Source: Gammaproteobacteria bacterium CG22_combo_CG10-13_8_21_14_all_40_8
Lineage (GTDB): Bacteria > Pseudomonadota > Gammaproteobacteria > Enterobacterales > GCA-002770795
NCBI GenBank assembly: GCA_002770795.1
Contig: PCTP01000174.1
Span: 4,615 to 49,611 of the forward strand
Direction: 5' to 3'
Length of the DNA: 44,997 nucleotides
In this document: piece after piece, positions 2,819-38,214 of the stretch
Layout of the letters: each line of letters begins with the position of its first letter
How positions within the stretch are numbered: position 1 is the first letter of the stretch
The notes under the pieces: model-generated
Database searches by the model: none
Told to the model about the DNA's origin: nothing
The model's input: only the letters and a program-made list of their open reading frames with translations
Translations under genes and position numbers: made by a program

Positions 2819-2893
2819 TCTCTGTGTCCTTTGTGGTTCATTGATTGATCTCTAACCTCTTTCCAAACCATTGAACCACAGAGGACACAGAGA
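2819..2893. repeat. Long imperfect palindrome (25-nt arms, 23/25 complementary, 25-nt spacer) in a divergent intergenic region; REP/MITE-like element or regulatory hairpin
   Basis: Left arm is TCTCTGTGTCCTTTGTGGTTCATTG (2819-2843). The reverse complement of the right arm (2869-2893) is TCTCTGTGTCCTCTGTGGTTCAATG. The left flank adds further CTCTGTG-like heptamers (2811-2820). Confidence 0.7.
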
Positions 2894-3042
2894 CCGCCGA
2901 GAAAATATGGTTTCAGTGATTGTTATGGCTATTTGATCATATCTCCCTGAATATGAATCGTTTTTCGTGATCTAGCCCTGAATTTTTAGCAAAATTATAA
3001 AAATCGACTATATTTAGACTAATCAGATCCCTAATCATAGTT

Positions 3043-3858: not shown

Positions 3859-3860
3859 CT

Positions 3861-12409: not shown

Positions 12410-13266
12410 AGTTTATATCGATTTAGCAAGTTCAATGGGAAAGTTAAGAAATAACCTATCCATCGTTTGAAAAGTGGAAGTTCATCGCACCATCCATCAT
12501 GAGATTGAAACTGAATAGAAGCCTTTTTAGCCAAACGATTTCCGCCGATGATATGGCCTATGTCAAAAAATTGTTCTGTCTGAATTTTGGTTAAAATAGA
12601 GATACAATCCAGATCTGTAAAGTTAGCGATATTTTGAAATACAGATTTTGGATCATTTAACAAATCTTCATATTTTACTTTTAATACTTTATTTTTTAAG
12701 AGTGTTCTGGAAATTATTTCAGCAGTAAAATTCACTAGATTATAATAAATACAAGCACTCATTAATCCTCTTGATGTTTGCACATTCTTGGCAAAGGAAT
12801 GAATAACCCCTCTAGGATCACGAACTAAATAGATATATTTTACATCTAAATTATCACATTTATTTAAGGCCAGGGCCCTGCCTATATATTTAGATGAGTC
12901 GATCACTCTTTCTTGATCGCAATGTTGAAGGATCTCAGAAAATAATTCTTCATGAAAATTTTGGTAGCATGATGGTAATTTATATGCAAAAAAATATTTA
13001 AAAATATTTATATGCTTTTCTAGAGTTCTCGCACGCTCTTGTGTCTCTTGCTCCAAAGATTTTAAACAAGAAATTTGTGACCAACATATGCAATCCGAAA
13101 GTAAACTACCGCAGCTACATTGGCTTACAGCTAAATTTCCATGGTTTAGTTGGGTTAACTCCCCTACTTGAATGGCACTTTTAGCAGCTCCCAAGAATAC
13201 ACTTAACGCCGTGCTGCCACTACGTCCTGCGCCCATGATATAAAGAATTTTAGATTTTTTCTGCAT
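12406..13266 (-). CDS. Sulfotransferase (PAPS-dependent, Sulfotransfer_3-like)
   Basis: 5'-PSB loop [12 protein letters not shown]. 3'-PB motif [14 protein letters not shown]. Cys cluster [14 protein letters not shown] moved the start to the ATG at 13266 ([19 protein letters not shown]), because the track ORF extends 84 nt further into the upstream acetyltransferase gene. Confidence 0.8.
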
Positions 13267-13777
13267 GACGATACTTAATGACTTTTGCAGGGTTTCCAAC
13301 AACAACAGCCCAAGCGGGTACATTTTTTGTGACCACAGCTCCGGCTCCAATCACAGCATGATCTTCAACAATTATGCCAGGTAGAATAATCACATTCGCG
13401 CCTATCCAAACATCATTCATTATACGAGTCTCTTTTCTGCTCTTGCCTTGCTGTTGAATATACTGATGACAATCATCAAATTTATGATTTCTGGTATAGA
13501 TTTTCACATCTGGTCCCATTATCACATAGTCCCCGATAGAAACATTGGCATGAATCAAACAATTTTGCCCCAATTCAGAATGGTTACCTATACGAATATT
13601 AGGAGAAATATCTGCATTATATTTCACTCGAATATTGTCTCCACAATTCACAACAAACTGTTTAACCAGAAGTCTACGAATACGGTGAAAGCCTAAAGAA
13701 TAAGGTCGATAATCTTCTGGCGTAAACCTGAAAAAGGCGATGTATAAAAAATAAGCCAGCTTTCTATAAAGACTCAT
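13250..13777 (-). CDS. Hexapeptide-repeat (left-handed beta-helix) O-acetyltransferase, WcaF/maltose acetyltransferase-like
   Basis: Hexapeptide repeats ([31 protein letters not shown] ... [45 protein letters not shown]). Confidence 0.85.
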
Positions 13778-20260: not shown

Positions 20261-22162
20261 ATGTACAAGACTAATATATTCAAGAACATAGCCCTAAAGG
20301 TGCTATCTTTAAGCAGACAAAAAAAACAAATTATTGCCATGCTTTTTGATTTTATAGCATTGACTACCGCTTTTTTAATCTCATGGCGTCTCACTAATCA
20401 TCGGCTAGCATTAGAAACCTCATTATTATTTGCTTTCTTACTGCTCACCAACTATTTGGCTACATTATTTCTTTTTCATCGTTTCTCTGTCTACAAAACC
20501 GTCGTTCGATATCTGGATCTCACCGTTCTAACAAGCATTTTTGCAAGTTTGTTTGTTGGTTCACTGATGTTTTATCTTATCTTGTATTATTTTAATATCG
20601 CACGGCCTTTAGCACTTTCTATTATATTTTTAGCCTCTAGTCTCCTTATCATTTCTGGTACTCGTTTGGTTGTTCGAGCCCTGTTAAGATATATTCACCC
20701 CAGTAACCTCAAACGAGTTCTAATATATGGCGCTGGATCCGCAGGAAGACAACTTTCTGCGGCTTTAAAGCGAGGAAATGAATATTCACCTATCGCCTTT
20801 ATGGATGATGATCTCTCTCTACAAGGTACGAAAATAGAAGGCTTAACCGTTTATTCAGTAGCCGAAATAAAAAGTCAAATCACCTCTTTGAGGGTAGATG
20901 TTATTCTTTTAGCCATGCCCAGAAACTCATCTCAAAAACAACGTGTTTTGGTCACTGAACTGGAATCACTTCAAGTCGAAGTTAAATCATTACCTAGTTT
21001 TGCAGATTTAGTCAGCGGTAAAGCGAAAATTGATGAATTACGCGATGTACAAATTGAAGATCTACTCGGACGTGACGCAGTATTTGCCAACCCAGATCTT
21101 CTGACACAATGTATCATCCATAAAAATGTATTAGTCACAGGTGCAGGAGGTTCAATTGGCTCTGAACTCTGTAGACAGATTATTCAACTTTCACCAAAGA
21201 CACTGATCCTCTTTGATGTCTCTGAATTTAATCTCTACCAAATTGAACAAGAATTACTTCAACAACAATCAGACACTAAAATATTTGCTGTATTGGGTAG
21301 CATACAAAATAAATCACGACTTCTATCCACTCTAACCAGCTTCAAAGTTGAAACAGTTTATCATGCGGCAGCCTATAAACATGTTCCCATGGTTGAACAG
21401 AATACTATAGAAGGAGTCAGAAACAATATATTCGGTTCGCTCAATACAGCACAGGCAGCCATTGAAGCGGGCGTTGAGGTTTTTGTTCTGATATCGACAG
21501 ACAAAGCTGTTAGGCCTACCAATACTATGGGTGCAACGAAAAGAGTTGCTGAGTTAATTTTACAGGGACTCAATAGCCAAAATCATTCAACCAAGTTTTG
21601 CATGGTTCGATTTGGAAATGTCCTAGGTTCTTCTGGTTCTGTAGTTCCTCTATTCCATAGACAAATTAGAGAAGGTGGCCCCATTACTGTCACAGATCCC
21701 AAAATTATTCGCTATTTTATGACAATCCCAGAAGCTGCCCTATTAGTTATTCAGGCAGGTTCAATGGCCAATGGCGGGGATGTTTTTGTTCTCGATATGG
21801 GAGAGCCTGTTTTAATACATGACTTAGCTAAAAGAATGATCGAATTATCAGGCCTAGAAGAAAAAACAGAAGAAAACCCTGATGGCGATATTGAAATAAT
21901 ATTCACTGGTCTTAGACCAGGAGAAAAACTCTATGAAGAGTTATTAATCGGGGAGAATAACGTGACCAGCACTCAACATCCTAGAATTATGAGTGCTCAA
22001 GAAAGCTTTATGAAATGGGAAGAACTACATCAACTTTTAGGGCAGTTAGACATTGCTTGCTCTGACAGAAATGCATCAAAAATTAGGCAGTTACTTATTA
22101 ATGCCCCAATTGACTTTAGGCCTATTTCTTCCAATAGTGATCATTTGGAAAATCATCATTAA
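20261..22162 (+). CDS. Membrane-anchored UDP-HexNAc 4,6-dehydratase (CapD/WbpM/PglF family)
   Basis: Four N-terminal TM helices. Rossmann motifs YGAGSAGRQL and VTGAGGSIGSEL. SDR core STDKAVRPTNTMGATKR, then FGNVLGSSGSV and MTIPEA, as in the CapD/PglF family. Confidence 0.9.
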   Translation: MYKTNIFKNIALKVLSLSRQKKQIIAMLFDFIALTTAFLISWRLTNHRLALETSLLFAFLLLTNYLATLFLFHRFSVYKTVVRYLDLTVLTSIFASLFVGSLMFYLILYYFNIARPLALSIIFLASSLLIISGTRLVVRALLRYIHPSNLKRVLIYGAGSAGRQLSAALKRGNEYSPIAFMDDDLSLQGTKIEGLTVYSVAEIKSQITSLRVDVILLAMPRNSSQKQRVLVTELESLQVEVKSLPSFADLVSGKAKIDELRDVQIEDLLGRDAVFANPDLLTQCIIHKNVLVTGAGGSIGSELCRQIIQLSPKTLILFDVSEFNLYQIEQELLQQQSDTKIFAVLGSIQNKSRLLSTLTSFKVETVYHAAAYKHVPMVEQNTIEGVRNNIFGSLNTAQAAIEAGVEVFVLISTDKAVRPTNTMGATKRVAELILQGLNSQNHSTKFCMVRFGNVLGSSGSVVPLFHRQIREGGPITVTDPKIIRYFMTIPEAALLVIQAGSMANGGDVFVLDMGEPVLIHDLAKRMIELSGLEEKTEENPDGDIEIIFTGLRPGEKLYEELLIGENNVTSTQHPRIMSAQESFMKWEELHQLLGQLDIACSDRNASKIRQLLINAPIDFRPISSNSDHLENHH

Positions 22163-22175
22163 GAGTAAAGTTTAC

Positions 22176-24008
22176 CTAAATGCAGTCATGTTCAATATTC
22201 GAATAAAAAATCTCATTCCAAAGATGAACCTGATAAAGCCTAAACATGAATCTTTCATATTTAGGCATAAGTAAAGTTGTACTATTAACATAAGTTTTGA
22301 CATTTTTAGAAAAAATTGGCCAATCAAAGATTGGAGATGTCTCCAAATCAAGAACCATCTTCTTTTTAGTTTCTAACTTTATATTTGAAGAAAATCCAAT
22401 TTTTTTCCTTTCTAGTTGTTGACGAAAAACCTGATAGCCAGTTAATTTCCTCAGTACATATTTATTCTTCGCATTCCAAATTTTTAGTTTATCTCCATAT
22501 TTAAAAACAAAATCTACCAGCCGGTGATCCATAAATGGTGAGCGATTCTCAACAGAATTATTCATTGCAACAATATCACCATAATAAAGTAAATTAGAAA
22601 GTCCTTTGGAGTGTTGCTGCATTAAATAACCATTTATGTCTGTACGTTTATTTGGAGCTACACTATCTTCCTCTAACAGAGTCTTTTCCGAATCTTTGAA
22701 ATCAGAAAAGAATTTCTCATAGCCGATAAAATTTCGTAGAACTTTTTTACTTGGCTCACTTAAATTAGTACGTAATGACAACTTTAATGAACTTAAGAAT
22801 CCATCTTTTATCATGTCTTTAGTTAAAAGATATGCCTGTTTGAACTGCATAGATTTAAGATAGTAGGGTAATAAAACTAAGAAATAGGTTTTGTATCCCC
22901 CTAGTAACTCATCTGCTCCTTGCCCATCCAGGCTAACTTTTATATTTGAACTTGCAATTTTTTCATATAAATAATCAATTGATACAATTGCTGGTGAAGA
23001 ATGTCCCTTGCCCAGATGTTGTACTAATCGCTTTAACCTTAATATATAATCATCTGGATTATTATCCTGTTTACTTATAACTAAAGACATTTTTAATTGA
23101 TTAGCAATAATTTGTGCATACTGGCTTTCATCATTGTGATCTTCTGACGCATATGTAAATGCTAGTATTTTTTCATTTGTATTTTCTTTTCGCATGTAAT
23201 ATGCAACTAAAGTACTATCTATTCCACCAGAAAGTAGTACGCTTAGAGGGACATCTGCTCTTAGTCGTAGTTTGACAGAATCTTCAAATAAATGTTCAAA
23301 TTCATCAAAAACCTTATCATTAGTTTCAGCTATAGCTCCATCAAAATATTTCCAATAACTATTTTTCTCTATTGAACCATCTGATTTTACTTTCCAATAC
23401 TCAGATTTTGGGAAGGTTTTTATGTCTTTAAAAAAAGTTCTCCCACCTAAATCAGCATCGCCTTCTTTCAGAAAACTTTGGATCATAAAATAATCAACCG
23501 CCAACTGTTTTTGCATTGTTAACTGTTGAATTTCACTCGCAAAATAAAGAACATCATCACTTTGCATATAAAATAAAGGCTTTTGACCAAATCTATCTCT
23601 TGATACATAAATTTCTTTAGAATGAGTATCATAAATCACCAACGACCACATACCATTAAAATGAGAAAAACACTGTTCTCCCCATTTGTGAAATGATTTT
23701 ATCACCACTTCGGTATCTGAATCGGTATCGAAGTGGTAGCCATGACATTCTAATTCGCTTCTTAGTTCTATATAATTAAAAATCTCCCCATTATAAATCA
23801 TTTTCAGATATTCAAAATAAAATGGCTGATTTCCACTTTCCTGTAGACCGATGATAGACAGTCTTGTATGACCTAAGAAGCAGCGTTCATCGCTTTCATA
23901 TCCGATATGGTCTGGACCTCTATGTTTGACTTTTTCTATTGCTTTTATACAGTTTTCAATATTAAGCGCTTTCTTAGAGTAATTAAAAGCCGTAAAAATA
24001 CCACACAT
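22176..24008 (-). CDS. Asparagine synthase (glutamine-hydrolysing)-like amidotransferase; in this context probably a uronic-acid amidotransferase (WbpS/WbtH-like)
   Basis: N-terminal nucleophile MCGI. GATase_7 blocks HRGPD, NGEIFNY, SDTEV. PP-loop SGGIDST in the synthetase domain. Confidence 0.88.
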   Translation of the reverse strand: MCGIFTAFNYSKKALNIENCIKAIEKVKHRGPDHIGYESDERCFLGHTRLSIIGLQESGNQPFYFEYLKMIYNGEIFNYIELRSELECHGYHFDTDSDTEVVIKSFHKWGEQCFSHFNGMWSLVIYDTHSKEIYVSRDRFGQKPLFYMQSDDVLYFASEIQQLTMQKQLAVDYFMIQSFLKEGDADLGGRTFFKDIKTFPKSEYWKVKSDGSIEKNSYWKYFDGAIAETNDKVFDEFEHLFEDSVKLRLRADVPLSVLLSGGIDSTLVAYYMRKENTNEKILAFTYASEDHNDESQYAQIIANQLKMSLVISKQDNNPDDYILRLKRLVQHLGKGHSSPAIVSIDYLYEKIASSNIKVSLDGQGADELLGGYKTYFLVLLPYYLKSMQFKQAYLLTKDMIKDGFLSSLKLSLRTNLSEPSKKVLRNFIGYEKFFSDFKDSEKTLLEEDSVAPNKRTDINGYLMQQHSKGLSNLLYYGDIVAMNNSVENRSPFMDHRLVDFVFKYGDKLKIWNAKNKYVLRKLTGYQVFRQQLERKKIGFSSNIKLETKKKMVLDLETSPIFDWPIFSKNVKTYVNSTTLLMPKYERFMFRLYQVHLWNEIFYSNIEHDCI

Positions 24009-24147: not shown

Positions 24148-25326
24148 TCATTTGTATTCTGCATGACCTAACACAGTTTCAATGACATTCGACATAAAAG
24201 TCATATCACTCAAGCACAAAGTTGGATGAATCAAAAACATTAAACTAGTTTCCCCTAACTCTTTGGCAATTGATAACCGTTGTTTAGGTCGAAATCCTGT
24301 ATTATCAAAAGCCTTTTCTAAATATATTTCAGAGCAAGATCCTTGAAAGCATGGAACACCCAATTTATTAATTGCATTTACAATACGATCTCTATCCCAA
24401 TCTGATTTCAAGTTTTTGGGCTTAACAAAAGCATAATATTTATAATACGCATGTACTATATTGTCTGCAGGTTTAGCTATTCGAATACAATCAAATTCTG
24501 TCAGAACCTTTTCAAGCATCTTTGCGTTTTGATTTCTTTTTTCAGTCCAATCTTTCATTTGTGTGATCTGGTAGCGGCCGATAGCAGATTGCATCTCAGT
24601 TAATCGAAAATTTGTGCCAAAACTTTCATGAAGCCACCTAAAACCTGGTGCATGTTGACGATTATAAACCGCATCCCAAGATTTCCCATGATCCTTATAA
24701 GCCCACATTTTTTTCCAGAGAGACTCATTATTTGTCGTGACCATACCCCCTTCACCCCCAGTTGTCATAATTTTATCTTGGCAAAAAGACCAGGCATTAA
24801 TATGACCGATAGAGCCTACAGATCGACCTTTATATTTTGCACCATGGGCTTGAGCACAATCTTCGATCACAAACAGATTCTTCTGAACCGCCAAATCCAT
24901 AATAGGGTCCATATCGCAGGGCCAGCCAGCCAGGTGAACACAGATAATCGCTTTGGTTCTATTTGTTAAAACTTTAGATATAGTTTCAGCAGTAATATTT
25001 TGCGAATTTGGATCTACATCTGCAAAAACTGGTATAGCACCAGCATTTACGATACTGCTTGCTGAAGCTAAAAATGTTCTAGGCGTCACAATGACCTCAT
25101 CGCCAACACCTATATCTAGAGCATGAAGTGCTAAATCGATAGCAACAGTTCCATTAGCCAAAGCAATAGCATATTGTGATTGCGTATAGGCTGCAAATTC
25201 TTTCTCAAAACATCGTCCCTCATCCCCTGTCCAATAATTCACTTTGCCTGAAGCAAGCACTCTTGAAACCGCTGATATTTCATATTCTGAAAATACAGGC
25301 CAAGAACCAAGTAATTTATCATTCAT
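24148..25326 (-). CDS. DegT-family aminotransferase, PglE-like (UDP-4-keto-6-deoxy-HexNAc 4-aminotransferase)
   Basis: WPVFSEYEISAV, ALANGTVAIDLAL, VIVTPRTFLASASS, EDCAQAHGA, SFCQDKIMTTGGEGG (PLP lysine). Adjacent to a NeuD/PglD-type acetyltransferase and a small phosphoglycosyl transferase. Confidence 0.85.
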   Translation of the reverse strand: MNDKLLGSWPVFSEYEISAVSRVLASGKVNYWTGDEGRCFEKEFAAYTQSQYAIALANGTVAIDLALHALDIGVGDEVIVTPRTFLASASSIVNAGAIPVFADVDPNSQNITAETISKVLTNRTKAIICVHLAGWPCDMDPIMDLAVQKNLFVIEDCAQAHGAKYKGRSVGSIGHINAWSFCQDKIMTTGGEGGMVTTNNESLWKKMWAYKDHGKSWDAVYNRQHAPGFRWLHESFGTNFRLTEMQSAIGRYQITQMKDWTEKRNQNAKMLEKVLTEFDCIRIAKPADNIVHAYYKYYAFVKPKNLKSDWDRDRIVNAINKLGVPCFQGSCSEIYLEKAFDNTGFRPKQRLSIAKELGETSLMFLIHPTLCLSDMTFMSNVIETVLGHAEYK

Positions 25327-25959
25327 TTAGTTCGTTTTTCCTTTAATAATTTTAGTGGGAACACCAACAGCAGTTATATCACTTGGAAGGTTTCGAATCG
25401 CAACACTCCCTGCACCCACAATCGAGTTTGAACCAATGGTAAGATTTTGAATAATTGTAGATCCAATCCCTATCCAGGAATTTTTACCAATCGAAACATT
25501 GCCGGCTATGTGTACACCAGGGCAAATATGCACATAATCACTGATACAACAATCGTGATCAATAGTTGCTGCGGTGTTGATAATAACGCCATTTCCGAGT
25601 TTTGAATCAATGTTAATACAGGCTCCATTAGCAACCAAGTTACCAAGTCCTATTTCGACGTAGGTGCTAATAATGGCTGAAGGCGAAATCAAATTAACCA
25701 CATTATTTGATGTTTTAAATAATGCTTCAAGTTTCTGTTTACGTGCTGAGTTATTTCCAATCGCCACAAAAGTAGCATCATATTCTTTCGCTTTTAAAAA
25801 GAAACTCTTCTCATCACCGATGACTTTCCATTTACATAAATTTTTCTCATTTAGCCAATTGACATCATAAAAATCTATCTGTTGCCACCCCAAAGCAAGA
25901 GCAATTTCTGCAGCTACTTTTCCATGTCCACTGGCGCCAAGAATAGCAAGTGTTTTCAT
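25327..25959 (-). CDS. NeuD/PglD-family sugar N-acetyltransferase (hexapeptide repeat)
   Basis: N-terminal Rossmann-like LAILGASGHGKV, then a beta-helix (IGLGNLVANGACINIDSKLGNGVIINTAATIDHDCCISDYVHICPGVHIAGNVSIG...). The start is placed at the ATG at 25959, preceded by GAGGAAA 8 nt upstream. The track ORF starts 27 nt earlier. Confidence 0.85.
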   Translation of the reverse strand: MKTLAILGASGHGKVAAEIALALGWQQIDFYDVNWLNEKNLCKWKVIGDEKSFFLKAKEYDATFVAIGNNSARKQKLEALFKTSNNVVNLISPSAIISTYVEIGLGNLVANGACINIDSKLGNGVIINTAATIDHDCCISDYVHICPGVHIAGNVSIGKNSWIGIGSTIIQNLTIGSNSIVGAGSVAIRNLPSDITAVGVPTKIIKGKTN

Positions 25960-25972
25960 AATGATTTTTCCT

Positions 25973-26575
25973 CTAAGGCTTTCCATTAGAACCTGAAAAT
26001 TTTGACATAGTCACCTCTCCTTGTGCTGAGATCCCTTCACGGAAAAAAACTTTCTTTACTGTTAAACAAAGAATTTTTATATCTAACCAAAAACTCTGAT
26101 TATCAACGTACCAAACATCTAATGTGAATTTATCTTCCCAGCTTATCGCATTGCGACCATTGATCTGTGCCCAACCTGTAATACCTGGCTTCACCTCGTG
26201 ACGTCGTGCTTGTTGTGAATTGTACAAGGGGAGATATTCAGTCAGCAAAGGTCTTGGTCCCACTAAACTCATGTCTCCTTTGAGCACGTTCCACAAACCT
26301 GGTAACTCATCTAAACTTAAACTGCGTATTAGTTTACCAAAACTGGTGATCCTTTCCTCGTCAGAAAGAGGATTGCCATGATTATCTAAAGCATTTTTCA
26401 TAGAACGAAATTTTATCATCTCAAAAATAATATTATTTTTTCCGGGTCTTGATTGCCGAAAAAGAACAGGTGGGCCAAAGTTTATGGCCACGAGCAGGCC
26501 AGTCAATAGCAATATTGGCCAAAGAATTAAAAGTGCAGAAAAAGAAATAATAATATCAAATAACCTTTTCAACAT
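25973..26575 (-). CDS. Small monotopic phosphoglycosyl transferase (PglC/WbgY-like undecaprenyl-phosphate sugar-phosphate transferase), initiating enzyme
   Basis: LKRLFDIIISFSALLILWPILLL re-entrant helix. KFRSM, DELPGLWNVLKGDMSLVGPRP, PGITGWAQ are bacterial sugar transferase family motifs. About 200 aa if it starts at the ATG at 26575; the track uses the GTG at 26602. Confidence 0.88.
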   Translation of the reverse strand: MLKRLFDIIISFSALLILWPILLLTGLLVAINFGPPVLFRQSRPGKNNIIFEMIKFRSMKNALDNHGNPLSDEERITSFGKLIRSLSLDELPGLWNVLKGDMSLVGPRPLLTEYLPLYNSQQARRHEVKPGITGWAQINGRNAISWEDKFTLDVWYVDNQSFWLDIKILCLTVKKVFFREGISAQGEVTMSKFSGSNGKP

Positions 26576-27798
26576 GATTTTTCCCAACTTGTCTCTAACC
26601 ACAACACAAATTGTTCAGCCAATATTTCTCGATTAAACTGTGAAACGGCTAACTCTTTTGCAGCTAAACTCATAGGTTTCAATTGTTCTGAATTATCAGC
26701 TAAATTTTCTATAGCGAGAACAAAGGCTTCAGGATCATCGGCGTCGACAGCAACCCCACATTTTACATTGGTAATCAGATCAGCAATCCAACCTGGATAG
26801 TTACATAAAACAGGTAGTCCAGATGATAAATAATCGAAGAACTTATTTGGTGATGTGCCATAATAAAATGCTGGTACATTCGCTAGAATTTGTAAGCCCA
26901 AATTCGCTGACTTGGTTAATCCGGTGAGTTGGTGTTTTGAAACTGGATCGTGGAACACAATGTTTTCTAAACCTTTATTAGTCGCTAACTGTTGTAATTG
27001 TGCTTTTTCCTTTCCCTGTCCAACTAAAAGTATTTTAATATCATATCGTTGATGTTTTTGGAGAATTTCTGCTACTTTTATCAGTGCCCCCAATCCATTC
27101 GCCAAGCCATGAGTGCCGGTAAATATTGCCAGGAAATCAGAATCATTAATGGATGCAGGCCGCCAAGGAGCAGCTGATTTTTTATCAAAAAAATCAATAT
27201 CACATCCATTAGGGATTAGGATAACTCTTGATTCATCCTTTATTATCCTTAAAATTCCTTGTTTTATCCCGGGAGATAAAGCAATTAACCTATCAGCACT
27301 CTTATACGCAGTCCATTCCAAGAAGCTCATTAACCCTAAAACAATCGGATTTTTAATCACGCCCATGGCTTTGGGAAGCTCTGGCCATAAATCTCTTACT
27401 TCAAATACAAAAGGCTTTCGTCTAATCAATTTCGCAAAAATACCAGGTATTGCAGCAGTCAGTGGTGTTGTTGTTGCAAATAAAAGATCATAGTTTTCAA
27501 ACATGGCGACTTGAATACTCTTAACCGCAAAAGATAAAAACAATAGTGTCCTTGTCATAAAACCATCTTGATTTGAATAATTTAATTTAAACTCTACAAC
27601 ATGAATACCATCCACAACTCCTTTTCTAACGCCCTTTATGAAATCATTTTTTAACCCCGTTTCCCCACCTGAATAGGATCCACAAACCATGGTTACATGG
27701 TGGCCATGACTAATTAATCTTTTTGCCATTTCATAAGAGCGCGTGCCTGCCGCACCCGAAGGCGTAGAGAAATGTTGATGAAAATAAAGGACTTTCAT
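26569..27798 (-). CDS. Glycosyltransferase family 4, WbuB/WcaI-like
   Basis: MKVLYFHQHFSTPSGAAGTRSYEMAKRL is the characteristic WbuB/WcaI N-terminus. C-terminal TSPNKFFDYLSSGLPVL. Confidence 0.85.
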   Translation of the reverse strand: MKVLYFHQHFSTPSGAAGTRSYEMAKRLISHGHHVTMVCGSYSGGETGLKNDFIKGVRKGVVDGIHVVEFKLNYSNQDGFMTRTLLFLSFAVKSIQVAMFENYDLLFATTTPLTAAIPGIFAKLIRRKPFVFEVRDLWPELPKAMGVIKNPIVLGLMSFLEWTAYKSADRLIALSPGIKQGILRIIKDESRVILIPNGCDIDFFDKKSAAPWRPASINDSDFLAIFTGTHGLANGLGALIKVAEILQKHQRYDIKILLVGQGKEKAQLQQLATNKGLENIVFHDPVSKHQLTGLTKSANLGLQILANVPAFYYGTSPNKFFDYLSSGLPVLCNYPGWIADLITNVKCGVAVDADDPEAFVLAIENLADNSEQLKPMSLAAKELAVSQFNREILAEQFVLWLETSWEKSC

Positions 27799-27801
27799 AA
27801 A

Positions 27802-29622
27802 TTAAAAGAAATACTCTGTATGTATTTGTCCAGCTTGATTGAACTCAATTTCAATCACTGGAATTTTTGTCTTTTGCAGATAATAGAGGGATTCTTCGCC
27901 AATCGTTAACTCCATACGGATAATCGGTATATCTGCGGATATTTCGATACAATGTATACCGTTTGTCACTTTATTTCCTTCTAAAACCCAATCACTAGGT
28001 TTTAGCCTCCAACGCAATACGGCTTTTTCTTTAAACCCAGAAACATTGTCCGTCACAATCAATCTATTGGGTTCCAAAACCACTTCCCGAGAGTGACTGA
28101 CTCCTTGCCTGGTTCGATAAGAGGCATTGCATTGCCATTTATCATCCAACAAAAAATCGACATCATTAGTTTTTAACCAATCACCAAACAAAAAACGACC
28201 AATTCTGGGCATCTGTTCATTTCCATCAAACTGAATGGTATTATGTGACGAAACCCCAGAAAAATAATAATAATCATGCTGACTTGCATTATAACTGTAG
28301 CTTCCACCATCACGAAGTAAATTTTCACCTCTATGCCAGAAATCAACATGTAAAACATCCGCTTGGCCTGGCCGAAATTTAAAACGTGCATATCTCTGCA
28401 GGACAAATGCTTGCTTATTGATTAACAGGTTATATCCACCTTGATCAAACTGTATAGAAGTTTTTGGAGTCAGTAATTCTGTAGGGATTTCAATCTTTAG
28501 CCAATTGAGTTGATCATTCATGGGACCTTCAGATTCAAACGCAATTTTCTTGAGAAATAATGCTGAGGCCAACTGTGTAGAAGGCCTAAAATCTCGGTAA
28601 TCCGCTGAAGTGAGAGGCAGTAGATTTGCGCCATCATTAGCGCCTAAATTCGGCACAAATCCATTCTCTGATTGGATAAAATGATAAATCCATAAAGTGG
28701 CTTTTGCCAATTTCTCATAAAAATTGGTAGAAAACTTGGATAAATTTAGCTTGAGTCGCCAAATTTCAACAATAGATAAAGTATCTAACATAAGACGGTG
28801 ATAATTGATAGAGTACTGGCTAAAACTCCCATCATTTTCAATAAGGCTTAACACGCATTTTTCCAACCATTTTTCTCCTAACTTACACCAATCCTTACCA
28901 TCCTTATTTCCATTTTTTTGTAACCAACTCCCTCCTATGTATAAAGCTGCCGCTTCAGAAGTACCGTGGTTATTATTTTGTGCAATAGCATAAGAGAGCG
29001 TAGGAGCTATTCTTTGAAGATGGAGATGAACAAGATTCAAAAGAGCAGGTGTTGTTTTAGTCGATTGATTTAAAATCAATGCTGCTACCGCTAAATGAAT
29101 AATTCTTATAGAAGCCTCCTGTCCACATTTCCAATTTTCTCCCTTATATGGAGGATTATTCAAAATCCAGTCGGCTATCCATATATTTAGTTTGGGTAAA
29201 TTTTCATTTTTACCGAGAATTGTTTGTTGCGCAAAACCAATAACCCAATCAAATCTTGAAACTTCCCAAACCACTTTAATATCAACATGATCCGAAGCAA
29301 AATCTGGCAACTTCCACCAATCAAATTGAACACTAGAGATTATTTTATTCATAAATGGATTTAAGTGCCATTGAGGGACTTCAGCGTGATTTAAGGTAAA
29401 CCATCCAAAATAAGTGTTCTGATTCATCCAAGCCAGATTGCTATCAAGATGGTTTAGTTCTAAATCATTTGGCGGTTGGAAAAATATACCTGTAGGAATA
29501 TCAGCACCCATTCTCAATACTGGATTAGTGCCAAACTTGATACTTAACTTATACAGAATATATCGATAGATACTTCTTATACCTATGTCAAACGCAGTTC
29601 GCACAAGAATAAGATAACTCAT
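27802..29622 (-). CDS. Heparinase II/III-like family protein (lyase/epimerase fold) embedded in the biosynthetic operon
   Basis: Central NNHGTSEAAALYIGG (family N-H block). C-terminal ADVLHVDFWHRGENLLRDGGSYSY and SSHNTIQFDG match the Hepar_II_III C-terminal blocks H-A-D-x-L-S-F ... D-x-G-x-Y-x-Y ... H-N-T. No obvious signal peptide at MSYLILVRTAFDIGIRSIYRY. Confidence 0.75.
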   Translation of the reverse strand: MSYLILVRTAFDIGIRSIYRYILYKLSIKFGTNPVLRMGADIPTGIFFQPPNDLELNHLDSNLAWMNQNTYFGWFTLNHAEVPQWHLNPFMNKIISSVQFDWWKLPDFASDHVDIKVVWEVSRFDWVIGFAQQTILGKNENLPKLNIWIADWILNNPPYKGENWKCGQEASIRIIHLAVAALILNQSTKTTPALLNLVHLHLQRIAPTLSYAIAQNNNHGTSEAAALYIGGSWLQKNGNKDGKDWCKLGEKWLEKCVLSLIENDGSFSQYSINYHRLMLDTLSIVEIWRLKLNLSKFSTNFYEKLAKATLWIYHFIQSENGFVPNLGANDGANLLPLTSADYRDFRPSTQLASALFLKKIAFESEGPMNDQLNWLKIEIPTELLTPKTSIQFDQGGYNLLINKQAFVLQRYARFKFRPGQADVLHVDFWHRGENLLRDGGSYSYNASQHDYYYFSGVSSHNTIQFDGNEQMPRIGRFLFGDWLKTNDVDFLLDDKWQCNASYRTRQGVSHSREVVLEPNRLIVTDNVSGFKEKAVLRWRLKPSDWVLEGNKVTNGIHCIEISADIPIIRMELTIGEESLYYLQKTKIPVIEIEFNQAGQIHTEYFF

Positions 29623-29726
29623 CTGAAAAAAAAACTTCTTGGACCAAAATATTTTTTGGCCATTACAATCTTTCTATTGGACTGGTTAAGTAACATCATA
29701 TAATGCTCATTCAATACTGTTTGGGA

Positions 29727-30848
29727 TCACTTCATTAACGCTTGATTGACCCTATCAATCATGATGGAACTATTCCAATGATTTTTTGTTAAATTCAAGC
29801 TATATTGACACATTTCATGGTAATTCTGATTATCAAGTACCTTAGTTATAGCTTCAGCGAGATTGTGATTTGAATAATCATTTAAGATATAACCATTTTT
29901 ACCTTCGTGAATAAGATCATACTCAGTACCATCTGCAACACGAGAAACTACAGGTTTACCCAATAATGTCGCATGATGAATAACTAACCCCCCCATGCCA
30001 GGAACCACCACCACATCAGCTCTTTTGAAGTAATGTCCCACTCCATTAAATATTGCACCATAGAAGTTAACGGACTTCTCTAGCTCAAGCTGTTTTGTCA
30101 CCTCTTGTAATTGCTCAAGCTCAGGACCTGCACCTACAAACCATAGAAAAACATCTTGGCTCTCCCTCTCTGCTCGCATTATTTTAAATGCGTACAGAAG
30201 ATCCAGAGGTCTTTTTGATTTAATCAGAGAACCTACATAGAGTATGATCCTGCCCTCAATACTAAAGTTTGGTGCTGGATATTCTAAATCATCCAAAACC
30301 AGTCTGGTATTCATACTATTGGGAGCCAATATTATCTTGTCTTCATTGACATTTTTACAATCTAAATAATAGGTTTTAGCCAAAGTATTTCTAGCTAATA
30401 CACAACTACTTCGTTTAATTAAAAAATTAATAATAGGCTCAAAAAATCGAGTTAAAGCATTTGGTTTTCTATCTCTTACCTTTCCAAGACTCCACCAAAT
30501 AAATTTTTTTCTAAACAGAAAGCAATATAAAAATATAGAAATATTATTTAGGAAATTGATTTCACCTTCCGTGATAATCCTATCTGGCCTATCTTTGATT
30601 AATCTGAAGAATAAAAAAGGAGAGAAATAAAGTGGATAATCCTGATTTTTGTATTTGAAAACCCAAGAAGCATTCCATAGTCTTGTAATTGAAAAGTTGG
30701 CATCATGCCCTGATAAAGATTTAGGATCATCCTTTTGTTTAAACCCACCATCATAAACAATCACGTCATGTGAATTTTGCTCTATAAAAGCACTTAAAAA
30801 ACCAATTCGCCAATTAGCTAAATAAGGCTGAAAAAATGCAACTCTCAT
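29727..30848 (-). CDS. Glycosyltransferase (GT-B, GT1/GT4-like)
   Basis: Two-domain GT-B layout. C-terminal GMGGLVIHHATLLGKPVV...ADGTEYDLIHEGKNGY. Locus context. Confidence 0.75.
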   Translation of the reverse strand: MRVAFFQPYLANWRIGFLSAFIEQNSHDVIVYDGGFKQKDDPKSLSGHDANFSITRLWNASWVFKYKNQDYPLYFSPFLFFRLIKDRPDRIITEGEINFLNNISIFLYCFLFRKKFIWWSLGKVRDRKPNALTRFFEPIINFLIKRSSCVLARNTLAKTYYLDCKNVNEDKIILAPNSMNTRLVLDDLEYPAPNFSIEGRIILYVGSLIKSKRPLDLLYAFKIMRAERESQDVFLWFVGAGPELEQLQEVTKQLELEKSVNFYGAIFNGVGHYFKRADVVVVPGMGGLVIHHATLLGKPVVSRVADGTEYDLIHEGKNGYILNDYSNHNLAEAITKVLDNQNYHEMCQYSLNLTKNHWNSSIMIDRVNQALMK

Positions 30849-30850
30849 AG

Positions 30851-31306
30851 TTAGTATATATTTTCCAGTAAACTATACACATCTTCTTCTATCGTTCTGA
30901 TCACTCTAGCAGGACTTCCAGCAACAATAGAGTTATCGGGCACATCATGTAAAACAACAGAGTTTGCACCGATAATGACATTATTTCCAACACGAATATC
31001 TCCGAGTATCCGTGAACCAGCTGAGATATAAACATTATTTGCGATAGTGGGTACACCATGAGGAGATAGTTTTCTTCCAATGGTAACATTTTGACCGATG
31101 ATCACCTTATCACCAATAATCGCTTTGCTATGGATAACCACACCAATTCCACCATAAGCAAATTTGCTATCTTTCCCAATTTTGGTTGTATAAGGAACAA
31201 CTGAATTATAGAAGAGGAAAATTAGCCCTTTAATAATTTTAGGTAGCAAAGGTATGCCTAACTCATATAATTTATTTGCTATTCTATATAATACTATTGC
31301 ATTCAT
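30851..31306 (-). CDS. Serine-acetyltransferase-like hexapeptide O-acetyltransferase
   Basis: PLLPKIIKGLIFLFYNSVV is a CysE-like helix. It is followed by hexapeptide repeats (IGDKVIIGQNVTIG ... VYISAGSRILGDIRVGNNVIIGANSVVLHDVPDNSIVAGSPARVI). Confidence 0.8.
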   Translation of the reverse strand: MNAIVLYRIANKLYELGIPLLPKIIKGLIFLFYNSVVPYTTKIGKDSKFAYGGIGVVIHSKAIIGDKVIIGQNVTIGRKLSPHGVPTIANNVYISAGSRILGDIRVGNNVIIGANSVVLHDVPDNSIVAGSPARVIRTIEEDVYSLLENIY

Positions 31307-31617
31307 AACCAGACCTGTACAACCCAGAGAGCTTGTCGATAATGATATATTTTTTGATTAAATCCTAGAAGCCTGTCCGAGAACAGACTGAACTACTGCG
31401 GCCAATGTTGATTGGCCAGCTTTCCCGATGAATTTCGTTACATACGACTGCATGGATGCAGAGCAACGCAGGAGCAGTTGCCGAGAATGACTATTCACCT
31501 CAATCCAGCGAAAAATCTGACTCAAACGGGCTTTGATTACCACCAATTATAAGAAAATACAGGAAAGCGGTACTATTATTACATAAAAATATATCCACTG
31601 CATGTACCAAAATATGA

Positions 31618-34353: not shown

Positions 34354-35631
34354 TCAAAACCAAATTCCTTTGGTATCGATACACCTTTTACCCTTTAACA
34401 CTTCGGGATCAATTTTTTTAAATTCGTCATGCTCAACTAACAGCAAAATAACATCCGCTAAATCTATAGCCGTATTTAAATCCACAATTTCAAATGAGAA
34501 TTTATGATGTTCAATTTTTAAATTGGGTTCAACAGAGATAAGCTTACAAGCAAGCTCTTGATGTAATATTTCAGTAATTTTTAAAGCGGGGCTTTCTCTA
34601 ATATCATCAATATTGGCCTTAAATGATAAGCCCAAGCAAGCCAAAGTCAAATCTTGGATATTTTTATGCGGGTTATCTGTACAAACATCTAAAAGAACAG
34701 ATTTAACTTTATCCATCACCCAATTAGGTTTACTGTCATTGACTAATCTAGCTTGATGGATAAGTTTCGCTTGAGCAGGGTTTTTTGACACAATGAACCA
34801 TGGATCAACGGCGATACAATGCCCCCCTACTCCAGGACCAGGTTGTAAAATATTAACCCTTGGATGTCTATTAGCTAGCGATATAAGTTCCCAAACATCA
34901 ATCCCAAGATCATCACAAATAATTGACAACTCATTAGCGAAAGCAATACCTACATCACGAGATGCATTCTCAGTTAATTTTGCCATCTCTGCTGTTCTTA
35001 CATTTGTAATGACGCATTCTCCTTCAACAAAAATCCGATACAACTCTAACGCTTTATGAGAACAAGCTGGTGTAATGCCACCAATAACACGATCATTTTC
35101 TCGCAACTCTCTCATAACTTGTCCAGGCAGTACCCTTTCAGGACAATGTGCAATGTAAACATCTACATTATCCCGACCTTGCTCGGCAAATACCAAGTCT
35201 GGCCGAGCTGCTTGTAGCCATAAAGCCATCTGTTCTGTTGCCCCTACTGGAGATGTCGATTCCAGTACCACAAGATTTCCTTTCTTTAAAACAGGTGCAA
35301 TCGCTTTTGCTGCCGCTTCAATGTAACTCAAATCAGGTTGAGGGATTTCTTCCTGATTTTTTACTGGAAAAAAAGGCGTTGGAACAGCGATTAGAAACGC
35401 ATCAGCACATTCAGGAACTGTGGTTGCACGCAGATAGCCACTTTGTACTGATCTCAGCACATAGTTATCTAACTCAGGTTCAATAATGTGAATTTCCCCA
35501 CGATTAATGGTATCTACAGTCGACTGGTTCACATCAACTCCAATCACTTTTATTTGTTTTGATGCAAATGCTGCAGCAGTGGGTAATCCAATATAGCCGA
35601 GTCCAACAACAGAAATAGTTTCAAATGACAT
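34354..35631 (-). CDS. wecC: UDP-N-acetyl-D-mannosamine dehydrogenase
   Basis: MSFETISVVGLGYIGLPTAAAFASKQIKVIGVDVNQSTVDTINRGEIHIIEPELD is near-identical in pattern to E. coli WecC. Catalytic GVGGHCI. Confidence 0.9.
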   Translation of the reverse strand: MSFETISVVGLGYIGLPTAAAFASKQIKVIGVDVNQSTVDTINRGEIHIIEPELDNYVLRSVQSGYLRATTVPECADAFLIAVPTPFFPVKNQEEIPQPDLSYIEAAAKAIAPVLKKGNLVVLESTSPVGATEQMALWLQAARPDLVFAEQGRDNVDVYIAHCPERVLPGQVMRELRENDRVIGGITPACSHKALELYRIFVEGECVITNVRTAEMAKLTENASRDVGIAFANELSIICDDLGIDVWELISLANRHPRVNILQPGPGVGGHCIAVDPWFIVSKNPAQAKLIHQARLVNDSKPNWVMDKVKSVLLDVCTDNPHKNIQDLTLACLGLSFKANIDDIRESPALKITEILHQELACKLISVEPNLKIEHHKFSFEIVDLNTAIDLADVILLLVEHDEFKKIDPEVLKGKRCIDTKGIWF

Positions 35632-35649: not shown

Positions 35650-36777
35650 TCAGGATGCAATAATAGCGTTAAGTATTTTTTGACTAGCGGTCCCATCTCC
35701 ATATGGATTATGGGCTTTACTCATTTTTTGATACAGCTGTTCATTTTCTAATAATTCAATAAGTGCTTCGGATATTTTATTAGAATTTGTACCAACTAAT
35801 CTTACAGTTCCAGCTTCAACAGCTTCCGGTCTTTCAGTCGTATCTCTCATCACTAAAACCGGTTTTCCTAGAGTAGGCGCCTCTTCTTGAATACCGCCAG
35901 AATCGGTTAATATAATGTATGATCGACTCATTAAATAGACAAATGGTAAATAGTCTAAGGGATTAATCAAAAAGATATTACTTTTGTTGGATAATAAACG
36001 TTTTACAGGTTCTTGAACATTTGGATTAAGATGAACAGGGTAAACAATTTGTAATTGAGGGTATTTATCTGCAATCTTGGCTAGTGCACAGCATATACTT
36101 TCAAAACCTTCACCAAAACTCTCTCTTCTATGCCCCGTCACTAAAATTATTTTTTCCTCATCATTTAAGAAATCAAACTGCTCACTACATTCTTTTGCTA
36201 ACGCTTTATTATTTTTAATTTTATTGACAACTGTAATCAAAGCATCTGTGACAGTATTACCCGTTATATAAATTTTATCGGTAGTTACACCTTCGCGTTT
36301 TAAATTATCGGCAGCTTTCTCAGTGGGAGCAAAATGATATTCAGTCAAAACGCTTGTCAATTTTCTATTGGCTTCTTCAGGCCAAGGAGAATACAAATCT
36401 CCTGTTCTAAGTCCAGCTTCAACATGACCAACTTTGATCTGTTCATAAAATGCAGCCAGGGCAGCTGCAAATGTTGTGGTGGTATCACCATGAACCAACA
36501 CAATTTCTGGAGCCAATTCTCTAAGTATAGGGCGTAACCCATTTAATATACTGGTAGTAATACTGCTCAAAGACTGTCCTGGTTTCATTATATCTAAATC
36601 AAAATCAGGTGTTATTTCAAATAAGCTCAGTACTTGATCCAACATTTGACGGTGTTGAGCAGTTACACAGATCTTTACATCAAATTCTTTTCTCAACGAA
36701 AGACACTTCACTAAGGGAGCCATTTTTATCGCTTCAGGACGAGTCCCAAACACGAATAGAATTTTCTTTTTTAACAT
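35650..36777 (-). CDS. wecB: UDP-N-acetylglucosamine 2-epimerase (non-hydrolysing)
   Basis: [78 protein letters not shown]. The start is placed at the ATG at 36777 ([15 protein letters not shown]) by analogy with the E. coli WecB N-terminus. The track's TTG at 36834 and the ATG at 36792 are alternatives. Confidence 0.92.
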
Positions 36778-36885
36778 ATTTTCAACTTTCATATTTACAA
36801 TTTTTGAGGAAATTGATTCATGAACAGGAACCAAACAAGAAAGCCTTGTAGAAATTCTCCAGATGCTGCAAGTTCAACTCGGTGT

Positions 36886-38214
36886 TTATGCATTGATAAC
36901 ATTTGTAGATATATTATGTTGAAACCTTCCTCTGGTATCAATGATCAATTTGGCATTAGATAAAATTAGATCATAATTAAATTTATCGTGATCTGTTGCC
37001 AGTAAAACAACATCAAATGATTTTATCACAGTTGATGTTAAAGCAATGCTGGTTAGGTTGAAATGATGTTGTTTCATTTTTGGGAAAACTGGAACATGGG
37101 GATCTGAATATTCAAGAATGGCGCCTTTGCTCTGTAGAATCTCCATTAATTTTACTGAGGGTGATTCTCTCATATCATCGACATTTTTTTTATAAGCAAT
37201 CCCTAATAAGAGTATTCGACTTCCTTTCACCGACAAACCCAGGTCATTTAAAGCATTGACTAATTTCTCAATAACCCAATGGGGCATTGAAGAATTCACT
37301 TCACCAGCTAATTCGATAAAACGGGTATGTACTCCATATTCTCTTGCCTTCCAAGTAAGATAGAATGGATCAATTGGGATACAGTGTCCTCCTAATCCTG
37401 GGCCGGGGTAATACGCAGTAAATCCGAATGGCTTGGTTGCTGCGGCTCTGATCACTTCATGAATATCAATTCCCATTTTATCAGCAACAACTTTCATCTC
37501 ATTCACTAACCCTATGTTCACAGAACGATGAATATTTTCTAATAGTTTGGTCATTTCAGCTGTTTTTGTAGAACTTACACTAACAACTTTATCTATGACA
37601 GCTTCATAAAGAGCGACTCCAACCGCTGTACACTCGGATGTATAACCCCCACAAATTTTGGGTATTGTTTGGGTAGAGAACAAATTATTTCCAGGGTCTT
37701 CTCTCTCAGGAGAATAGATCAGAAAAAAATCCTCTCCAACCTTGAAACCCATAGACTCGATTCTGGGCAATAATTCTTCGTCTGTCGTCCCAGGATAAGT
37801 GGTGCTTTCCAGTGATAATACTTGCCCCTTAACGAGATAAGGTAGCATTGCATCCATAGTGTCAAGCACATGACTTAGATCAGGTTCTCGAAACTTACTT
37901 AAAGGCGTTGGTACACATAAAATTAAAGCATCACATTGAGTGATATTTGAAAAATCTGCTGTTGGAAAGAAGCCAAAATTGATGGCATTATTTATCGAGC
38001 TTGAAGAAATATGCTCTATATAACTTTCTCCCCTTTTCAGTTTGTCGATTTTGAATGTATCAATATCAAATCCTATGACACTGAATCCAACCGCAATATA
38101 TCTCAGCATCAATGGTAAACCGACATAACCCAAACCAACAATTCCAATAGTTGCAGATTTAGAGATCAATTTGTTTTTTAGCTCATGAGCTATCGCTTGA
38201 TTCATTTTAAGCAC
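36886..38214 (-). CDS. Nucleotide-sugar 6-dehydrogenase, WbpA/WbpO/TviB-like (UDP-HexNAc to UDP-HexNAc uronic acid)
   Basis: [17 protein letters not shown]...[20 protein letters not shown], catalytic [13 protein letters not shown]-terminal [15 protein letters not shown]. Confidence 0.85.

Follow-up and report, generated by a model that had tools for sequence, protein, structure and literature searches.

A heparinase II/III-fold protein as a proposed UDP-ManNAcA C5-epimerase in a bacterial polysaccharide operon

The locus and its heparinase-like gene

The stretch of DNA analysed here (44,997 nucleotides, referred to as the window) derives from Gammaproteobacteria bacterium CG22_combo_CG10-13_8_21_14_all_40_8, contig PCTP01000174.1, positions 4,615 to 49,611. 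It contains a polysaccharide biosynthesis operon with a heparinase-like gene (HEP, used for the gene and its protein), and the window copy of the protein is denoted P0001. The source, a metagenome-assembled genome (MAG; G000) of 2.6 Mb, is 85.5% complete. The open reading frame of P0001 is intact and codes for 606 amino acids. The heparinase II/III-like motifs on which the initial annotation was based are all present, i.e., NNHG (N217-G220), QADVLHVDFW (Q420-W429), DGGSYSY and SHNTIQFDG, and both domains of the family are matched in Pfam: Hepar_II_III_C (PF07940) at 9.8e-23 and 81.3 bits (cut-off 24), and Hepar_II_III_N (PF16889) at 3.2e-10 and 40.3 bits (cut-off 22). NCBIfam has no model of its own for the protein and returns only weak partial matches to the heparin-sulfate lyase HepC.

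No membrane segment was found in P0001, the highest Kyte-Doolittle value for a 19-residue window being 1.44. The N-terminus does not contain a Sec-type signal peptide, since charged residues recur every 3-7 positions throughout the first 40 residues and leave no h-region, in agreement with the earlier statement that a secretion signal is lacking. P0001 is therefore predicted from its sequence to be cytoplasmic.

The minus-strand operon reads, in order, OPX exporter, Wzz, a WbpA/TviB-like dehydrogenase, WecB, WecC, Wzy, Wzx, an acetyltransferase, a glycosyltransferase of family 4 (GT4), HEP, a WcaI/WbuB-like GT4, PglC, PglD, DegT and an AsnB-like protein (Table 1). The HEP gene is separated by 3 nt from the downstream GT4 gene and by 104 nt from the upstream one, which matches the spacing originally given (3-4 nt and about 100 nt). 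The order acetyltransferase, GT, HEP, GT, PglC recurs in four independent assemblies from different samples, and the arrangement in the window is therefore not a misassembly. Farther left in the window are a WecG/TagA-like transferase, an RmlD-like reductase, a second aminotransferase and several sulfotransferases. P0001 keeps all residues that are invariant in its family, and deviates at 7 of 168 highly conserved columns, the family median being 4. It is an intact, ordinary member of a widespread family that is found here in a rare arrangement, i.e., without the oxidoreductase partner described below.

Table 1. Features of the polysaccharide locus, in window coordinates
Feature	Position	Strand	Basis or remark
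PglF-like membrane-anchored UDP-GlcNAc 4,6-dehydratase	20261-22162	+	Polysacc_synt_2 7.4e-126
AsnB-like amidotransferase, possible uronamide formation	22176-24008	-	Asn_synthase + GATase
DegT-family aminotransferase, PglE-like	24148-25326	-	PF01041 5e-92; 55-68% identical orthologues in most related loci
PglD/NeuD-type N-acetyltransferase	25327-25986	-	PglD_N + Hexapep; TIGR03570 218 bits
PglC-type monotopic phosphoglycosyl transferase	25973-26602	-	Bac_transf 5.6e-64
GT4 (WcaI/WbuB-like), proposed L-HexNAcA transferase onto first sugar	26569-27798	-	Pfam + NCBIfam
Heparinase II/III-fold protein P0001 (HepP/GnlB/WeeF family; proposed UDP-ManNAcA C5-epimerase)	27802-29622	-	606 aa; Pfam, AlphaFold2 model, alignment
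104-nt gap where related loci carry the bi-domain oxidoreductase	29623-29726		No relic by tblastn
Upstream GT4, not a conserved neighbour	29727-30848	-	Glycos_transf_1; homologue so placed only in L013
Hexapeptide O-acetyltransferase	30851-31306	-	Hexapep; 70% identical homologue in L013
WecC, UDP-ManNAc dehydrogenase, would supply UDP-D-ManNAcA, the proposed substrate	34354-35631	-	NF008286 equivalog 684 bits; cut-off 459
WecB, UDP-GlcNAc 2-epimerase	35650-36834	-	Epimerase_2 4.9e-121
Second nucleotide-sugar 6-dehydrogenase, WbpA/TviB-like	36886-38214	-	TIGR03026 417 bits

Conserved neighbourhood and the absent oxidoreductase

Relatives of P0001 are numerous: a word-indexed search matched more than 4,000 proteins, and an exhaustive search gave 1,219 clusters at 50% identity below 1e-30. 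Nearly all members have a length of about 605-615 residues, and hundreds of them align with P0001 at 45-56% identity across 99-100% of the length. For comparison with the window proteins, 80 related loci (L-numbers) were fetched from named genomes; counts given below refer to the 75 loci with enough flanking sequence, or to 74 or 61 loci where so stated. The loci represent Gamma-, Beta- and Alphaproteobacteria, Chlorobiota, Chloroflexota, Verrucomicrobiota, Gemmatimonadota, Lentisphaerota and Legionella. In a class-wide sample, the gene is carried by 5 of 400 genomes, too few for co-occurrence statistics.

In 70 of 75 loci, the gene next downstream of HEP is an orthologue of the downstream GT4, in most loci 50-61% identical, and the two genes mostly overlap or lie no more than 2 nt apart. 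Farther downstream, 65 of 75 loci encode a PglC-type transferase, usually together with PglD, DegT and PglF. Upstream of HEP, 70 of the 74 assessable loci carry a bi-domain oxidoreductase of about 712 residues, composed of an N-terminal zinc-dependent alcohol dehydrogenase half (ADH; MDR) and a C-terminal Gfo/Idh/MocA half, and the two genes usually overlap. The triad of GT, heparinase-like gene and GT pointed out in the initial annotation thus holds for its downstream member, but not for the upstream GT, since the usual neighbour on that side is the 712-residue oxidoreductase. The Gfo/Idh/MocA half of the latter shows partial matches to UDP-GlcNAc 3-dehydrogenase and inositol 2-dehydrogenase.

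Amidotransferases of the AsnB-like and WbuX/HisH/HisF types are modifiers of N-acetyl sugar acids and of N-acetyl groups, and both types are found with the cassette. AsnB-like genes adjoin it in 13 of 61 loci. A trio of WbuX, HisH-like and HisF-like genes is present in about 11-17 of 61 loci (L003, L005, L019, L022, L029, L030, L032, L038 and others), positioned upstream of the oxidoreductase, which points to frequent conversion of the N-acetyl substituent on the L-sugar acid to an acetamidino group.

The bi-domain oxidoreductase was not found in the window, in G000 or in four other assemblies of the locus. A tblastn search with four orthologues gave only noise (E > 1) in the 104-nt gap between HEP and the upstream GT4 gene and in a 311-nt gap at 31307-31617, and thus no relic of the gene. 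Among the 80 loci, L010, L013 and L039 are likewise devoid of the oxidoreductase, and no copy was found elsewhere in those genomes. A fifth case without the partner is locus L093, from a genome of the same class (G114) that is 100% complete. On the tree, the partner-less copies are scattered over four lineages and require four separate changes; they do not cluster, and a single partner-less clade is thereby ruled out. The nearest relatives of P0001 (P0008 and P0003) all have the oxidoreductase directly upstream. A search for residues that track loss of the partner found none among the five deviations of the window copy (G113V, R256C, D322F, P412A and D504T), which do not recur in L010, L013 or L039. 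In the partner-less loci L010, L013 and L093, HEP lies directly beside WecB or a WecB-like gene. As in the window, sulfotransferase genes (6737-7693 and 12823-13728) flank the WecB-like/HEP/GT4 core of L093 (G114:C2:326500-346400) on both sides, which may be a coincidence. The missing oxidoreductase is the only rare feature of the window copy, the family being otherwise widespread.

WecC, WecB and the second dehydrogenase are encoded in the same operon as HEP in the window. WecB/WecC orthologues are located within 10 kb of HEP in about a third of the loci, and WecC in 17-19 of 61. We examined 15 further genomes where WecB/WecC do not occur within 10 kb. A WecC orthologue (52-68% identity) is present in nine of these, in seven no more than about 10 kb past the fetched flank, and in two far from the locus. 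In the other six (a count that includes the two with a distant WecC), only a WbpA/TviB-like dehydrogenase lies near or inside the locus, with the exception of L021, where the distance is about 39 kb. A UDP-HexNAc 6-dehydrogenase, either WecC or WbpA/TviB-like, was accordingly found in all 15, mostly just past the flank.

A divergent member of the UDP-GlcNAc 2-epimerase family, 28-35% identical to WecB of the window, immediately adjoins HEP in L008, L009, L013, L015, L017, L054, L065, L073 and L093. This gene occurs where the only dehydrogenase detected is WbpA/TviB-like, and may encode a UDP-GlcNAcA 2-epimerase, i.e., another route to UDP-ManNAcA. In one metagenome contig (L092:317-3607), a UDP-GlcNAc 2-epimerase domain and HEP are fused in a single frame of 1,096 residues (P0271), followed by GT4; as a single example, the fusion could be a sequencing artefact. 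A glycosyltransferase of the WecG/TagA/CpsF family is encoded within the sulfotransferase module of the window (10705-11439, minus strand, 2.6e-51). Enzymes of the WecG type transfer ManNAc(A), and the WecB/WecC products may thus serve twice, as D-ManNAcA for this transferase and in a C5-inverted form.

Two further observations concern the surroundings of the operon. The RmlD-like reductase gene adjoins that of the second DegT aminotransferase (8593-9492 and 9508-10641, both minus strand), and as no RmlA, RmlB or RmlC is encoded in the window, the reductase may act on the 4-keto-6-deoxy-HexNAc from the PglF-like dehydratase. At 319-5207, a hybrid histidine kinase/response regulator and a response-regulator diguanylate cyclase (GGDEF) flank the polysaccharide region as possible regulators.

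Fold and active site

A model of P0001 was built with AlphaFold2 on a 65-sequence alignment of the family, with a predicted local distance difference test score (pLDDT) of 92.6 and a predicted template-modelling score (pTM) of 0.93. The chain is helical to about residue 375 and forms strands thereafter, corresponding to an alpha/alpha toroid followed by a beta-sandwich. The nearest solved structures are those of heparinase III, of polysaccharide lyase family 12 (PL12), with a Foldseek E of 2.5e-20 and a VIA Z of 33 for about 480 aligned residues. Next are lyases of families PL17, PL15 and PL33, and heparinase II. Residues 3-29 of P0001 form an extra N-terminal pair of basic helices, beyond what is found in heparinase III. 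Human dermatan sulfate epimerase 1 (DS-epi1; PDB code 6HZN) is also matched, with a Foldseek E of 4.8e-13 and a TM score of 0.56, and a VIA Z of 19.1 at a root-mean-square deviation of 3.9 A over 488 residues. A fold of this lyase type is thus already known from animals in the service of uronate C5 epimerisation. At the sequence level, a search with P0001 alone gave no match among PDB sequences, and heparinase III was recovered only with the family profile; for DS-epi1, sequence searching gave no match even at E 10.

In the initial annotation, the relation between alginate lyases and alginate epimerases was offered as precedent. The analogy is sound with respect to the chemistry, but not with respect to structure, as the alginate C5-epimerases AlgG and AlgE adopt a right-handed beta-helix, and all top matches of the P0001 model are proteins of the PL12/15/17/33 type. 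DS-epi1 is therefore the closer precedent.

Approximately 75 positions are invariant in the family alignment. In the profile alignment to heparinase III (PDB codes 5JMD and 4FNV), N218-H219 of P0001 fall on the Asn-His pair of the lyase, and Y274-H275 on its Tyr-His pair, and all four residues are invariant across the 65 family sequences. Other invariant residues include P418, D422, H425, D427, D438, Y444, H510 and several arginines. For the catalytic Tyr and His, an inspection of which had been proposed, the alignment thus gives a divided answer: the Asn-His and Tyr-His pairs are kept, but the third histidine of heparinase III, in the H-x-Q-P-D strand, aligns with Pro418, which is itself invariant in the family; this correspondence is drawn from the sequence-profile alignment only. 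This essential histidine is His424 in heparinase III from P. heparinus. For DS-epi1, the catalytic residues are H205, Y261 and H450. The first His and the Tyr have evident counterparts in P0001, whereas the third His has none; H425 is an invariant histidine particular to the family.

A glutamine at position 420, where the sequence would normally read H-A-D, had been singled out previously. Q420 is indeed present, but is not a defect of this copy, since glutamine occurs in 53 and histidine in 12 of the 65 family members, and heparinase III itself has Q at this position of H-x-Q-P-D. As judged from the alignment, Q420 is a tolerated alternation and the family norm rather than a lesion, and the substitution of weight would be Pro418, two residues before it.

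Proposed function and comparison with known systems

We regard it as somewhat probable that P0001 is a cytoplasmic PL12-fold enzyme of sugar biosynthesis, a C5-epimerase of UDP-N-acetyl-D-mannosaminuronic acid (UDP-ManNAcA) from the same family as HepP, GnlB/WeeF and the Ralstonia eps protein, and that its product in the window is the UDP derivative of N-acetyl-L-gulosaminuronic acid (UDP-L-GulNAcA). In the canonical cassette, the end product would instead be that of N-acetyl-L-galactosaminuronic acid (UDP-L-GalNAcA); as derived from the Fischer configurations, L-GalNAcA differs from D-ManNAcA at C3 and C5. The starting point would be UDP-D-ManNAcA made by WecB and WecC, enzymes assigned by family membership. 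P0001 would take off H5 by means of Asn218/His219 and Tyr274 and return a proton on the other face, to yield the C5 epimer, an L-gulo uronate. H5 of a uronate is acidic, being alpha to the carboxylate, and no keto group is needed. Re-protonation would be expected instead of elimination because O4 of the nucleotide sugar is a hydroxyl group and thus a poor leaving group. In the canonical cassette, the bi-domain oxidoreductase would then invert C3, with one domain oxidising and the other reducing, giving UDP-L-GalNAcA; the sole support for this role at C3 is the set of 3-dehydrogenase-like partial matches.

The WbuB-like GT4 would subsequently move the L-sugar acid onto an undecaprenyl-diphosphate (Und-PP)-linked 2,4-diacetamido-2,4,6-trideoxyhexose supplied by PglF, DegT, PglD and PglC, as suggested by the invariant gene order and by known structures with alpha-L-GalNAcA-(1->3)-Bac, where Bac denotes bacillosamine. 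GT4 enzymes of the WbuB type transfer L-FucNAc (6-deoxy-L-GalNAc) from ready-made UDP-L-FucNAc, a sugar of the same L-galacto configuration as L-GalNAcA, and a ready-made L-configured donor therefore fits. Because the oxidoreductase is missing in the window, the predicted donor is UDP-L-GulNAcA and the predicted unit L-GulNAcA-(1->3)-QuiNAc4NAc, for which amidation through the AsnB-like enzyme is possible, and which would form part of a heavily sulfated polymer. More tentatively, we propose that P0001 acts alone as UDP-ManNAcA C5-epimerase, and that L-GulNAcA, not L-GalNAcA, enters a polymer decorated by five sulfotransferases and a deacetylase; we consider this possible, if doubtful. Action at the nucleotide-sugar level is favoured because of the cytoplasmic location, the NAD-type partner, the occurrence of WecB both as neighbour and as fusion partner, and the strictly regular repeat units of Wzy-type polymers. 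The suggestion in the initial annotation of a cytoplasmic C5 inversion giving an L-configured HexNAc-uronate, rather than a catabolic heparinase, hence gains support from comparative genomics and the modelled fold, as the family is firmly tied to a WbuB-like GT4 and to genes for UDP-HexNAcA supply, sits in loci for L-GalNAcA-containing polysaccharides, and shares the fold of DS-epi1.

Several points speak against this assignment. A literature search found epimerase activity demonstrated for no member of the family, and solved relatives with this fold act on polymers rather than on nucleotide sugars. The third catalytic histidine of heparinase III, replaced by Pro418 in P0001, is conserved in heparinase II and DS-epi1, and two-base chemistry would thus need other residues, perhaps H425. 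Other routes to the product exist as well, since the vps cluster of V. cholerae makes L-GulNAcA and is not known to contain such a gene. WecB and WecC of the window may also feed the WecG-like transferase, and with a MAG that is 85.5% complete, the gene for the oxidoreductase may be in a part of the genome that was not assembled. At 54-61% identity, GT4 of the window resembles the GT4s of oxidoreductase-containing loci as closely as these resemble one another, and shows no sign of a changed donor. Finally, the sole published assay on the family is the clearing of heparin on a plate by recombinant HepP from P. aeruginosa PA14 (PMC5732420).

Among the alternatives, HEP may be unable to work alone and instead act on a keto-intermediate from the oxidoreductase, e.g., as a 3,5-epimerase. 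The organism would then either have the partner in the unassembled 15% of its genome and make L-GalNAcA, or carry a recently orphaned, non-functional leftover. The nearly constant and usually overlapping partner gene, its presence directly upstream of P0008 and P0003, the incomplete MAG, and a GT4 without divergence suggestive of a new donor all agree with such a dependence. We nevertheless judge it unlikely: partner-less loci have arisen independently in four lineages, three other partner-less genomes have no partner anywhere and a fifth case comes from a 100%-complete genome, all family-invariant residues are retained in P0001, H5 of a uronate is acidic without a keto group, and KL215 of A. 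baumannii also has gnlB without gnlA. The epimerase could also act after glycosyl transfer, its substrate then being a di- or oligosaccharide carried by Und-PP on the cytoplasmic side of the membrane, much as DS-epi1 works on a chain. Every relative of solved structure, DS-epi1 among them, has a cleft in which oligo- or polysaccharides are bound, translation of HEP is coupled to that of GT4, and the first 30 residues are modelled as two basic helices that could lie on the membrane. Such a substrate has a rather low probability in view of the WecB-HEP fusion and the adjacency of HEP to WecB-like genes, the soluble NAD-type oxidoreductase as partner, and the use of ready-made UDP-L-sugars by WbuB-type GT4s, mentioned above. 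Another reaction of the uronate, e.g., its dehydration or isomerisation, or a non-catalytic role as subunit of the transferase or flippase machinery, would be compatible with the absence of any shown activity, and the approximately 75 invariant positions indicate a precise small-molecule site. Its probability is nonetheless small, because the known chemistry of the fold, C5 proton abstraction on a uronate, explains only the D-to-L change, and this change is present in every characterised cassette product.

Lyase alternatives are unlikely. The initial annotation had considered a chain-trimming lyase, which does not agree with a predicted cytoplasmic P0001, while polymerisation by Wzx/Wzy is periplasmic. 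A true polysaccharide lyase, whether a virulence factor of the heparinase type, as published for HepP of PA14, or a trimmer of the organism's own polymer, would be consistent with the PL12 fold and with retention of the catalytic Tyr and Asn-His, and recombinant HepP did clear heparin in a protamine plate assay (PMC5732420). The assay was performed with 28 ug protein, and neither a catalytic mutant nor measurement of an unsaturated product was reported (PMC5732420). An export signal is absent from P0001, and none was found in HepP by its authors (PMC5732420). Furthermore, the third heparinase III histidine is an invariant proline in the family. Its members are spread over marine, soil and phototrophic bacteria, with Chlorobiota and Gemmatimonadota among the phyla, and are in every case encoded within biosynthetic operons. 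The phenotypes of the hepP mutant, affecting biofilm and killing of C. elegans, were described in a report where lipopolysaccharide is nowhere mentioned (PMC5732420); they are those expected from loss of O-antigen, and hepP lies in the O10/O19 O-antigen cluster. With these points taken together, we hold the lyase explanation to be very improbable.

L-GalNAcA and L-GulNAcA are found in O-antigens, capsules and exopolysaccharides, e.g., P. aeruginosa O3/O10/O13/O19, Ralstonia EPS I, Acinetobacter capsules and Vibrio, and we found no demonstrated biosynthetic route to either sugar in the literature. If the family consists of C5-epimerases, a nucleotide-sugar epimerase has been built on the scaffold of a lyase, HepP of P. 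aeruginosa, published as a "heparinase virulence factor", is an O-antigen enzyme, and thousands of "heparinase II/III family" annotations in biosynthetic loci are misleading. If P0001 works alone, the window would hold a bacterial counterpart of the animal sequence of uronate C5 epimerisation followed by sulfation (dermatan and heparan sulfate), and would offer a natural experiment in which the C5 step (HEP) of the proposed UDP-L-GalNAcA pathway is set apart from its C3 step (oxidoreductase). Partner-less loci such as that of the window are the simplest setting, and a clean test case, for the enzyme alone.

The family can be compared with several known polysaccharide systems. The cassette is shared by the O-antigen cluster of P. 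aeruginosa PA14, the EPS I operon of Ralstonia and the gnlAB/weeEF loci of Acinetobacter, the products of which all contain alpha-L-GalNAcA-(1->3)-Bac or -QuiNAc. In P. aeruginosa PA14, PA14_23420 and PA14_23430 correspond to ORF_10 and ORF_11 of a strain-specific region, where they are assigned to O-antigen biosynthesis (PMC1794565), and were later named zbdP and hepP (PMC5732420). The O-antigen of PA14 is -4)-alpha-L-GalNAcA-(1-3)-alpha-D-QuiNAc-(1-3)-alpha-L-Rha (PMC2997053), where QuiNAc is N-acetylquinovosamine and Rha rhamnose. HepP resembles P0001 in having heparinase II/III N and C domains, no export signal, and a position within a surface-polysaccharide cluster. ZbdP, a 78-kDa protein with zinc-ADH and Gfo/Idh/MocA parts, corresponds to the oxidoreductase of 70 of 74 loci, whereas the window is devoid of a partner of this type. 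The placement of HepP in the family is based on its published description and listed homologues (P. fluorescens, Acinetobacter and V. vulnificus) rather than on alignment, and where HepP was published as a heparinase, it is read here as a biosynthetic epimerase.

The disaccharide alpha-L-GalNAcA-(1->3)-Bac is common to polysaccharides of P. solanacearum GMI1000, Rheinheimera pacifica KMM 1406, Vibrio vulnificus YJ016, Ralstonia pickettii, Alteromonas and P. aeruginosa O3/O13/O14, and alpha-L-GalNAcA-(1->3)-QuiNAc is found in P. aeruginosa O10/O19 (PMC11200240). The Rheinheimera pacifica locus (L040) contains the oxidoreductase, HEP and GT4, and the O-polysaccharide of this species contains L-GalNAcA (PMC11200240). 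The eps operon on the Ralstonia solanacearum megaplasmid (L083) comprises a 2-epimerase, wecC, two transporters, a GT, an acyltransferase, a Gfo/Idh/MocA oxidoreductase, a "heparinase", a GT, a sugar transferase, an acetyltransferase and an aminotransferase. The "heparinase" aligns with P0001 along its entire length at 50% identity, the operon follows the same logic, and the acyltransferase takes a place similar to that of the O-acetyltransferase in the window. Ralstonia keeps the oxidoreductase and has L-GalNAcA in its exopolysaccharide, whereas the window lacks the oxidoreductase and adds the AsnB-like enzyme and many sulfotransferases.

For Acinetobacter, WeeE/WeeF of the emulsan cluster in A. 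venetianus RAG-1 are the same as GnlA/GnlB of the K loci, and have been postulated to function in UDP-L-GalNAcA synthesis. KL215 of A. baumannii, with gnlB but without gnlA, presents the same situation as the window. In a 2026 preprint, the heparinase-like structure of GnlB was taken as a reason to doubt a role in sugar synthesis. We liken GnlB/WeeF to P0001 by description only, and read the lyase fold in the opposite way, as the basis for C5 inversion. For the O-antigen cluster on pINV of Shigella sonnei, which contains N-acetyl-L-altrosaminuronic acid (L-AltNAcA), an expected homologue was not found by tblastn against 72,556 plasmids, where the only matches were from Ralstonia, Sphingobium, Shinella and Chondrinema; L-AltNAcA is therefore made in another way.

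Of the enzymes with known structure, heparinase III (PDB codes 4FNV, 5JMD and 4MMH) is the most similar to P0001 in fold, with the Asn-His and Tyr-His pairs kept at 16-17% identity. It differs in the histidine of H-x-Q-P-D, which is a proline in P0001, and P0001 in addition has no signal peptide and is encoded in a biosynthetic context. As for DS-epi1, the identity to P0001 is only about 11%, and the animal enzyme acts on a polymer in the Golgi lumen, but its two domains share the lyase-type fold of P0001 and serve to epimerise uronate at C5.

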